Assembly (NCBI RefSeq): GCF_030013595.1
Contig: NZ_CP122768.1
Source of the DNA: Escherichia coli
GTDB taxonomy: Bacteria > Pseudomonadota > Gammaproteobacteria > Enterobacterales > Enterobacteriaceae
DNA length: 64,000 nucleotides
Direction: 5' to 3' (one strand)
Below, piece after piece: positions 33,001-36,000 of the stretch. A program made the position numbers. Within the stretch, counting starts at the first letter, position 1; each line of letters opens with the position of its first letter.

Positions 33001-36000
33001 ATGACTCGCCTTCGTTTTTAAAATAGCCGCGCATTATTTCCGTCGTCACTTTTTTACGACGACCCTATAAAACGACCATATTTTTCACAGGGTCAATTTT
33101 TAATTGAGGTGGATATGTTCAGAAAATTAGCAGCTGAATGTTTTGGTACTTTCTGGCTTGTTTTTGGTGGCTGTGGTAGTGCCGTACTGGCCGCAGGCTT
33201 CCCGGAATTAGGCATTGGTTTTGCCGGCGTGGCGCTGGCATTCGGTCTGACCGTTCTGACGATGGCCTTTGCTGTTGGTCATATTTCTGGTGGTCATTTT
33301 AACCCGGCGGTCACTATTGGTTTATGGGCTGGCGGACGTTTCCCGGCAAAAGAAGTCGTTGGCTACGTAATTGCCCAGGTTGTCGGCGGTATTGTTGCGG
33401 CGGCGCTGCTGTATTTAATTGCCAGTGGTAAAACAGGTTTTGACGCGGCAGCCAGCGGTTTTGCTTCTAACGGTTATGGCGAGCATTCGCCAGGCGGTTA
33501 TTCCATGCTTTCCGCGCTGGTAGTTGAACTGGTATTGAGTGCAGGTTTCCTGCTGGTGATCCACGGCGCAACCGACAAATTCGCTCCTGCTGGTTTTGCG
33601 CCGATCGCTATTGGTCTGGCCTTAACCCTGATTCACTTAATCAGTATTCCGGTGACTAACACTTCTGTTAACCCGGCGCGCAGCACCGCGGTTGCTATCT
33701 TCCAGGGCGGCTGGGCATTAGAACAACTGTGGTTCTTCTGGGTGGTGCCAATTGTCGGCGGCATTATCGGTGGTCTGATTTACCGGACCCTGCTGGAAAA
33801 ACGTAATTAATTAACGCAGAAGGCCTGGCGCAATGTCAGGCCTTTTTTAAATATATTGATTCATCTTCCTGTTGCGCTCCTTGATGTGTTAAGCCACATA
33901 TAGTCACTGGCGCAGGGAGCGCGCAGGGGGCGGCCAATCGCCGCCGCCCCCTGCACCCCCGGGCTCTGGCGAACAAAATCGCCGCTGCGCGGTGCCCTCG
34001 ACTTATCCCTTGCGGCTACCGGGTCGGGCGCGAGGTAACATCCCTGTAAAACGCGCCCTCAGCCCACATCCATGTGGGCTGCCCCGGCCTTCAGGGAACG
34101 CCTCGGCGATTTTGACGCCACCAACACCGGTGCGGTTTGTAATTAAAGCGCAAGAATATCTTTAAATGAAAATGAATACCCTACCGATCCTTATGCATAA
34201 CATTTCCTTTTAATTGCAACTTTACTCGTCCTTCCGCTTTCAGTAGTGTGTCATCGCGCATTTCGACTTCATCTTTGCAAGGACTGGGTTTTCATGTTTT
34301 CTGGGCTGTTAATCATTCTGGTTCCCCTGATTGTGGGTTACCTCATTCCTCTTCGCCAAAAAGCTGCATTAAGAGTTATTAATCAGCTATTAAGCTGGAT
34401 GGTTTACCTCATTCTCTTTTTTATGGGTATCAGTCTGGCGTTTCTCGATAACCTCGCCAGTAACCTGTTGGCGATTCTGCATTATTCCGCCGTCAGCATT
34501 ACCATTATTTTACTCTGCAATATTATTGCGTTGTTGTGGCTGGAGCGCGGTCTGCCGTGGCGCAACCACCACCAGCAAGAAAAACTCCCGTCGCGTATTG
34601 CGATGGCGCTGGAGTCGCTAAAACTGTGCGGCGTAGTAGTGATTGGTTTTGCCATTGGTCTGAGTGGACTGGCTTTCTTACAACACGCGACCGAAGCCAG
34701 TGAATACACCTTAATTCTGCTACTTTTCCTCGTCGGTATTCAGTTGCGCAATAATGGCATGACCTTAAAGCAGATTGTCCTTAATCGCCGAGGAATGATT
34801 GTCGCCGTGGTGGTGGTTGCCAGTTCATTAATTGGTGGTTTAATTAACGCCTTTATTCTTGATCTACCCATCAATACCGCGCTGGCAATGGCCTCCGGTT
34901 TCGGCTGGTATTCTCTTTCCGGTATTTTATTGACCGAATCTTTTGGTCCGGTAATCGGGAGCGCAGCGTTTTTTAATGATCTGGCCCGTGAGCTGATTGC
35001 TATTATGTTGATTCCTGGGCTGATTCGCCGCAGCCGCTCTACCGCACTGGGCTTATGCGGTGCGACGTCGATGGATTTCACCCTGCCCGTTCTTCAACGT
35101 ACTGGCGGGCTGGATATGGTCCCGGCGGCAATTGTTCACGGTTTTATTCTTAGCCTGTTAGTGCCGATCCTCATCGCCTTTTTCTCTGCATAATACCTCT
35201 CTGGCGGTAGATCCCTGCCGCCAAAATTGCGCTAAATCAATCTCCCTTAAAGTTGCATGAAAAATCCCTTTTATCCCCGCGTTAAGCGTCTTAACCTTAA
35301 ACATGTATATTAAATATAACTTTAAAAGGTGTGATCATGTTTTGTGTGCAATGTGAACAAACTATCCGTACTCCGGCAGGAAACGGCTGCTCATACGCGC
35401 AGGGGATGTGTGGTAAAACGGCGGAAACCTCTGACCTTCAGGATTTACTCATCGCGGCGCTGCAAGGGCTTTCGGCCTGGGCGGTAAAAGCGCGTGAATA
35501 CGGCATCATCAACCACGATGTAGACAGCTTTGCGCCACGCGCATTTTTCTCAACCCTGACCAACGTTAACTTCGATTCTCCGCGTATAGTCGGCTACGCT
35601 CGTGAAGCGATTGCCCTGCGCGAGGTGCTGAAAGCACAATGCTTGGCTGTAGATGCCAACGCGCGCGTCGATAACCCGATGGCTGACCTGCAACTGGTGA
35701 GCGATGATCTCGGCGAGCTGCAACGTCAGGCAGCAGAATTTACCCCTAACAAAGATAAAGCGGCGATTGGCGAAAACATTCTCGGCCTGCGTCTGCTGTG
35801 CCTGTATGGCCTGAAAGGTGCGGCGGCCTATATGGAACACGCGCATGTTCTCGGTCAATACGACAACGATATTTATGCCCAGTACCATAAAATCATGGCG
35901 TGGCTGGGGACCTGGCCTGCCGATATGAACGCGCTTCTTGAGTGTTCAATGGAAATCGGCCAGATGAACTTCAAAGTGATGAGCATTCTGGATGCAGGCG

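Follow-up and report, generated by a model that had tools for sequence, protein, structure and literature searches.

The 64,000-nt stretch of the Escherichia coli contig NZ_CP122768.1 (assembly GCF_030013595.1) analyzed here, referred to as the window, carries a GC-rich, hairpin-forming element between aqpZ and lysO. This element is very probably (about 85%) RRS-lysO, one of two full-length copies of an already described E. coli replication risk sequence (RRS) formerly called TRIP1, and it is not new. The identification was made because the published coordinates and the exact published G-quadruplex (G4) motif both map onto the repeat unit of the window. Counted back from the lysO start codon, the published definition falls entirely inside the conserved unit (coordinates of all features are listed in Table 1). 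The G4 motif was matched exactly on the minus strand, where 0 matches were expected by chance; it lies on one strand only, and no further site was found in the window at up to two mismatches. The copy in the window was 95.5% identical to that of K-12, and the differing positions (~4.5%) were mostly located in the terminal hairpin.

The RRS literature comprises Rudd (1999), Pham et al. (NAR 2023), Pham et al. (2024), and the preprint of Kusi-Appauh et al. (2026). The element is TRIP1 of the 1999 repeat screen (Rudd 1999), in which it was listed because of a third, partial copy (Pham et al.), and the RRS at dusC was defined as 58–281 bp downstream of that gene (Pham et al.). In agreement with these papers, three places were found in K-12, namely lysO, a near-identical copy at dusC-yohP, and a partial copy at putP-efeU lacking the central domain, with lengths of about 280, 280, and 150 nt. 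A covariance model of the repeat matched the K-12 plus strand at lysO and the K-12 minus strand at dusC. The G4 strand is thus the lagging-strand template at both K-12 loci, as published, and hence for the allele type of the window, which itself contains neither oriC nor dif. An earlier note on this DNA, made from the sequence alone, had offered a dispersed repeat element as one of two explanations for the block. This option was right, as copies were found at unrelated loci and the element is identical to the published TRIP1/RRS; the same identity with a known repeat family removes its novelty.

The GC-rich block itself is real. The GC contents of 100-nt windows across 33900–34149 were 0.74, 0.66, 0.64, and 0.61, compared with 0.40 at 33800–33899 and 0.35–0.43 at 34100–34299; for the whole unit, this corresponds to 61–74% versus 35–43% in the flanks. 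Both inverted repeats pointed out in the earlier note were recovered, GCAGGGGGCGGC/GCCGCCCCCTGC with arms at 33923–33934 and 33943–33954 and CAGCCCACAT/ATGTGGGCTG with arms at 34060–34069 and 34072–34081, and each was 100% complementary. An additional long outer stem was formed by arms at 33974–33989 and 34099–34114. The aqpZ terminator was also confirmed directly upstream of the block as a hairpin followed by a T-run (33820–33850). Alignment to other copies delimited the conserved unit at approximately 33864–34144, slightly larger than the 33900–34140 assigned before. The RNA folding energies of the minus and plus strands were −148.1 kcal/mol (z −5.8) and −137.3 kcal/mol (z −5.0) relative to dinucleotide shuffles, and folds of the 222-nt core with DNA parameters gave −72.6 (z −5.6) and −70.7 (z −5.9) for the two strands; in every case, none of the 200 shuffles folded as well as the real sequence. 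A 57-codon open reading frame overlapping the repeat (33992–34165) is likely spurious and a product of the GC-rich repeat. The same probably applies to Klebsiella aerogenes NCTC10006, in which a coding sequence for a hypothetical or uncharacterized protein is annotated over the repeat (locus L008, 1252–1833).

The function of the RRS was taken from the dedicated papers (PMC10287960, PMC10592627, bioRxiv 10.64898/2026.06.16.732529). In these studies, ssGap-seq revealed accumulation of RecA and SSB on the lagging strand at both RRS sites. The G4 strand blocks DNA polymerases I, II, and IV, and the RRS is active when moved to ectopic sites. Deletion of the RRS-lysO element causes no growth defect (PMC10592627); removal of both copies requires a compensating 200-kb amplification, and deletion or inversion of both alters global supercoiling. 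In single-molecule assays, gaps were formed at essentially every encounter when the G4 strand was the lagging-strand template and at ~66% of encounters for the complementary strand. According to the published experiments on K-12, the strand carrying the G-rich motif folds into a very stable intramolecular structure when the fork unwinds the RRS. This strand is the lagging-strand template in K-12 and corresponds to the minus strand of the window. The lagging-strand polymerase then stalls and leaves a gap of up to ~2 kb, which is coated with SSB and RecA.

The comparative data point to a conserved fold on the G4 strand. A covariance model was built from 34 copies, and 81 family members were aligned to it; a MAFFT alignment of two subfamilies had misaligned helix 12 and given a poor consensus fold, and the model-guided alignment was used instead. 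The fold comprises 13 helices with 72 pairs and was kept in the 81 members. Paired cells amounted to 97.9%, compared with 38–45% when partners were slid by 1–3 columns, and 48 of the 72 pairs changed on both sides. None of 500 shuffles attained the observed value in any of five measures. Cells with G-U (or G-T) outnumbered A-C cells by 253 to 29, or by 98 to 20 with the outermost helix excluded. Because the model that guided the alignment had itself been derived from the fold strand, the pairing and G-U figures are somewhat inflated. When the strands were compared with RNAalifold, the prediction for each strand favored the G-U pairs of that strand, and the evaluation was therefore restricted to shared pairs and model-based counts; for the pairs predicted independently on both strands, the ratios of G-U to A-C were 10 to 1 and 21 to 12. 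Because G-U or G-T cells far outnumber A-C cells, the sequence comparison indicates that the structure is selected on one strand, the minus strand of the window, which the RRS authors refer to as the G4 strand; single-stranded DNA and RNA are indistinguishable in this respect. In the more divergent subfamily B described below, helix 13 is represented by GUUCAC/GUGAAC at the same position.

Several of these results weigh against the published account, in which the G4 is the active feature and both sequence and geometry are conserved. The exact G4 motif was present in 18 of the 81 family members, whose sequences included four G-runs of three or more in just one case. In natural variants, the G-runs were reduced from 5,5,2,2 to 3,3,2,2 or 3,3,3,2,2. 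The substitutions that break the G-runs were compensated on the opposite arm so that the hairpin stays, as in variants such as CAGAGGGCGG/CCGCCCUCUG, which restore the pairing of helix 12; overall, 10 of its 12 pairs showed compensatory changes. As the G4 motif is weakly kept while the pairs of helix 12 compensate, the conserved feature is probably the base-paired fold, and the 12-bp G/C hairpin alone could explain the polymerase arrest at the G4 site. We infer that selection probably acts on this paired structure and on two hairpin loops with an invariant GGA rather than on the G4 motif itself. Fast folding alone does not explain why the sequences of the loops and internal loops are invariant.

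Orientation and position were also found to vary in nature, which counts on the same side. Among 5426 complete E. coli genomes, the K-12-type arrangement at aqpZ-lysO was present in 4026 (at least 80% of a 701-nt query) and the K-12-like arrangement at dusC-yohP in 3317; it was therefore absent in ~26% of the genomes at lysO and ~39% at dusC. The other aqpZ-lysO alleles were inverted (673–674 bp span, including O157:H7), internally deleted (537 bp span), or interrupted by an insertion sequence (IS), and the other dusC-yohP alleles, including those of Nissle 1917, O103:H2, and O157:H7, were inverted. One O157:H7 genome (NZ_CP038342.1) has both copies inverted, with the model matching the aqpZ/lysO strand at one locus and the strand opposite to dusC at the other. 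Because both copies are reversed relative to K-12 and the record starts near oriC, as judged from gene order, both G4 strands of this genome are leading-strand templates. Both copies are likewise inverted in E. coli E69, Escherichia sp. E1V33 is mixed, and both copies are K-12-like in strain SCPM-O-B-8794. Inverted alleles in which the G4 strand is not the lagging-strand template were found in O157:H7, E69, AZ161, and UTI89. Simple inversion does not account for these alleles, as their entire spacers differ and identity between the elements is only 89–92%. Thus, the orientation to which importance has been attached is not maintained in nature. The natural arrangements are consistent with the 2026 finding that gaps are also triggered, less often, by the complementary strand. 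Three further arrangements were noted. The aqpZ-lysO locus of E. coli 23AR0151 (L200, 462–781) carries a remnant allele without the whole TwoAYGGAY-like domain, and UTI89 has one place only in the megablast search, at dusC-yohP. The alx-sstT spacer of K-12 (L076, 4547–4944) has boxC repeats where MEI4B-1023 (L005, 2235–2849) has an RRS copy, the whole spacer being swapped.

The repeat is widespread in E. coli and variable in number. With a 281-nt query, it was found in 5425 of the 5426 complete genomes, at a median of three places per genome; the other E. coli loci were dusC-yohP, alx-sstT, and the centrally deleted copy at putP-efeU. In a pattern scan of one genome per species, true copies were restricted to Escherichia, Klebsiella, Pseudocitrobacter, Kluyvera, and one further Enterobacteriaceae genome, and ~40 of the 65 matches were chance occurrences in GC-rich genomes lacking the hairpins. 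A metagenome scan added ~120 loci, including those of subfamily B, whose flanking paa genes were 77–80% identical to those of E. coli and Klebsiella. E. coli- or Klebsiella-like RRS copies on very short or low-coverage contigs of assemblies labeled as Bacillus sp., Ensifer sp., and a Desulfacinum metagenome-assembled genome (L055, L060, and L018) most likely represent contamination. A small open reading frame after the AAGGAG that is conserved at the 3′ terminus of the fold strand had only 5–9 codons and was not kept in Klebsiella.

These distribution data bear on whether the repeat is essentially a selfish or neutral mobile intergenic element, such as a miniature inverted-repeat transposable element (MITE), REP, or boxC, in which the fold would be recognized by a mobilizing enzyme, with the effects on replication in K-12 arising as a by-product. 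We consider this explanation rather unlikely. It would account for the variable copy number (1 to 10 in E. coli and at least 13 in some Klebsiella), for loci at which strains differ in the presence, orientation, or internal deletion of a copy, and for the fact that most copies lie in the spacers of convergent genes or follow closely on a stop codon. The Klebsiella copies, which have conserved extensions, are bracketed by REP sequences, and the subfamily B copies are bracketed by ~38-bp boxC-like inverted repeats. In favor of mobility are also the head-to-head pairs (L024, L057, L058, L113, and L112), each of a well-conserved and a diverged copy 17–142 nt apart, and one tandem triple (L087, 1849–3436) with a period of 654 bp. 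Against it, the E. coli copies showed neither terminal inverted repeats nor target-site duplications, and a MITE was rejected on these grounds. Alleles at dusC-yohP, aqpZ-lysO, and alx-sstT differ by replacement of the whole spacer without clean junctions, no association with a transposase was found in E. coli, and a phage collection yielded no match to the repeat. The two main copies are syntenic in nearly all E. coli, and the published conditional essentiality points to a host function. The other option of the earlier note, a structured 5′ leader for lysO, fared worse, and a cis-acting leader or riboswitch controlling this gene is hardly credible. Its sole support is the position of a strong secondary structure upstream of lysO. 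The repeat unit also lies downstream of dusC and between alx and sstT, and across strains the aqpZ-lysO unit occurs in both orientations and in an internally deleted form while the adjoining ~105 nt on the lysO side do not change. In the window, the strand bearing the conserved fold is antisense to lysO, and none of the riboswitch or leader families of Rfam was retrieved in a scan. The element is preceded by the aqpZ terminator, and a scan of 33700–34400 revealed nothing promoter-like ahead of it; the published deletion of the element without a growth defect argues in the same direction. A literature search for the lysO transcription start returned nothing usable.

The invariant loops raise a different question, namely whether the fold acts, instead or additionally, as a minus-strand RNA. 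It would then be a portable CsrA-binding module in read-through transcripts, a TwoAYGGAY-type structure with two putative high-affinity CsrA loops ~28 nt apart that one CsrA dimer could bridge. The loop of hairpin 1 was CA(U/G)GGAUG in 77 of the 81 members and that of hairpin 2 was (A/G)CA-N-GGA-(U/C)G, with all four bases occurring at N; the GGA of both loops was invariant in 81/81 while the closing stems covaried. [quoted passage not shown] Two family members, one of them L122 (7470–7825), have an inserted third GGA hairpin with the loop CCCAGGGAUGGG. The only Rfam matches of interest were to TwoAYGGAY (RF01731), full-length and on the minus strand; Rfam places this family in clan CL00106 together with CsrB, and RMfam proposed that it binds CsrA. 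TwoAYGGAY of Psychromonas is likewise a multi-copy repeat beside REP-like hairpins, and the fold strand is co-oriented with its upstream gene in three of four E. coli allele types. We nevertheless regard an RNA role as improbable. All RF01731 scores were below the gathering threshold of 43 bits (29.8 bits at 33976–34115 in the window; two alx-sstT copies reached 36.6 and 33.1 bits), and no match at E≤1 was found in the scanned copies of dusC-yohP, K. pneumoniae, and K. aerogenes. The scan of 33700–34400 found no promoter or terminator on either strand, candidate −10/−35 hexamers upstream of the minus-strand 5′ end were unconvincing when read by eye, and the fold strand is antisense to both adjacent genes in the window. 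The long, GC-rich stems are unfavorable for binding according to the SELEX work. GGA was not enriched (5 in 281 nt versus 6.8 expected in shuffles), and tables of crosslinking and immunoprecipitation sequencing (CLIP-seq) for E. coli CsrA list dusC and ybjE (lysO) as non-targets, although peaks were assigned by gene, which is not decisive for an intergenic RNA. The strand bias is equally explained by G-T wobble in single-stranded DNA. At permissive thresholds, the Rfam matches to microRNAs and long noncoding RNAs reflected the composition of GC hairpins. A separate hairpin, GCACCAGGGAUGUGC, was noted in the 5′ leader of sstT in K-12 (L076, ~4900–4944), with a GGA loop just upstream of the Shine–Dalgarno sequence AAAGGA; this is the layout of a classic CsrA-repressed leader and is unrelated to the repeat itself.

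The identification as RRS-lysO stands beside these alternatives, and a broader account of the RRS can be put forward only tentatively. Instead of a G4 device with a fixed orientation at two sites, the RRS may be a member of a mobile enterobacterial family of ~280-nt structured repeats, in which the selected trait would be the 13-helix TwoAYGGAY-type single-strand fold with two invariant CsrA-type GGA loops. The element would then be recognized by a sequence-specific partner, either CsrA on a transcript or a factor binding single-stranded DNA. The G4 would be incidental to the G/C hairpin, and the gap phenotype would reflect only some of the biology of the RRS or be specific to the K-12 arrangement.

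An IS110-family element was observed exactly in the GGA loop of hairpin 2 (...ACAGGGAU, IS, AUGUUACC in the view of the G4 strand). It was seen at aqpZ-lysO of E. coli SC418 (L202, ~1882–3265) and also in L141, L132, L086, and L118; the junction was identical in at least three different RRS copies, and the element was carried by 176 of the 5426 E. coli genomes. Its insertion into the RRS looks target-specific, as is that of IS621 with REP. In subfamily B (L186, L128, L147, L192, L182, L092, L148, L160, and L176), the core lies within a composite of ~480–500 bp with boxC-like inverted repeats CCCTCTCCC..GGGCTGAGGGATCCCCAGTAAT, which may be the composite boxC element of older surveys.

Table 1. 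Coordinates of the repeat unit, its structural parts, and the adjoining terminator in the window.
Feature	Position	Strand	Basis
Full conserved structured repeat unit (RRS-lysO and conserved margins)	33864..34144	− (fold strand = G4 strand)	Covariance model R1: 324.2 bits, E 3.4e-97, sole match in the window
RRS-lysO as published, 222 bp	33905..34126		168–389 bp upstream of the lysO ATG at 34294 (PMC10592627)
Published G-quadruplex motif GGGGGTGCAGGGGGCGGCGG	33941..33960	−	Exact match, single site
Helix 12, 12-bp all-G/C hairpin GCAGGGGGCGGC/GCCGCCCCCTGC, overlapping the G4 motif	33923..33954	−	Inverted repeat; 10/12 pairs with compensatory changes
Hairpin 1 (helix 8), minus-strand loop ACAUGGAUGU	34060..34081	−	Inverted repeat; 6/8 pairs covary; GGA in 81/81
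Hairpin 2 (helices 9–10), minus-strand loop UUACAGGGAUGUUA	34026..34058	−	Model fold; insertion point of the IS110-family element in other strains
TwoAYGGAY-like domain with long outer stem (arms 33974–33989 and 34099–34114)	33974..34114	−	Inverted repeat; RF01731 match; helices 3–4 covary
Terminal hairpin, helix 13 (GCGCTCC...GGGAGCGC), partly beyond the published 222 bp	33874..33922	−	Inverted repeat; 7/8 pairs covary
aqpZ intrinsic terminator (hairpin and T-run TTTTTT), context, outside the repeat	33819..33850	+	Inverted repeat

RRS-lysO has already been named and linked to a phenotype, and three papers are devoted to it; the observation of the GC-rich block as such opens nothing new. The comparative data qualify the published statements on three points: conservation of the sequence, conservation of position and orientation, and the G4 as the active feature. 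They also provide leads for work on the RRS: a fold backed by covariation, a G4 motif that is only weakly conserved, invariant loops of the CsrA type, the occurrence in nature of genomes with both copies inverted, and an IS110-family element that inserts site-specifically. If the loops do bind CsrA or another factor, an element of chromosome topology would be linked to a global regulator, and TwoAYGGAY, an orphan Rfam family, would for the first time have a relative amenable to experiments.

Among the known systems, TwoAYGGAY (RF01731), which itself has no demonstrated function, resembles the repeat in its long closing stem (P1) around a junction with two hairpins bearing A-N-GGA-Y loops and in its multi-copy, repeat-like distribution next to REP-like hairpins. 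A P1-type closing stem was found in the repeat, with the outer-stem arms and the outer helices supported by covariation. Loop 1 (AUGGAU) fits the AYGGAY pattern, whereas loop 2 is AGGGAU here, with R instead of Y at the second position, and A(G/C/U/A)GGA(U/C) in the family. The repeat further differs in its sub-threshold scores of 29.8–36.6 bits, in being much more GC-rich, and in having helices 12 and 13, which are missing from the Rfam model. The CsrB/CsrC/Rsm sponges also present GGA in hairpin loops matching the CsrA consensus; they have 9–22 such sites, whereas the repeat has 2–3 structured ones, no dedicated promoter was found for it, and the published CLIP tables do not include it among the targets. 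Since GGA is unenriched overall, the repeat is not a CsrB-like sponge, and this candidate was rejected on the count given above together with the flag "No" for dusC and ybjE in the CLIP tables.

The REP/BIME, boxC, ERIC/IRU, and RSA repeats of enterobacteria are similarly dispersed, intergenic, palindromic, and variable between strains, and REP and boxC are associated with the repeat in Klebsiella and subfamily B, respectively. The RRS differs from them in being longer (~280 nt) and multi-branched, with conserved loops and a low copy number. RSA was rejected by an indirect comparison of copy number and length: it has six copies of 150–151 bp in K-12, compared with the three places of about 280, 280, and 150 nt. 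According to the RRS authors, programmed gap formation is known to be triggered by just one other bacterial sequence, the pilE G4 of Neisseria gonorrhoeae; this short canonical G4 serves pilin antigenic variation, lacks an extended hairpin fold, and does not form a repeat family. With RRS/TRIP1 itself, the element in the window shares the locus, the 222-bp core, the exact G4 motif, and, as judged from its allele type, the strand and replication geometry of K-12. The RRS papers describe the sequence and position as highly conserved, whereas inversion, deletion, and extra copies were found here to be frequent.

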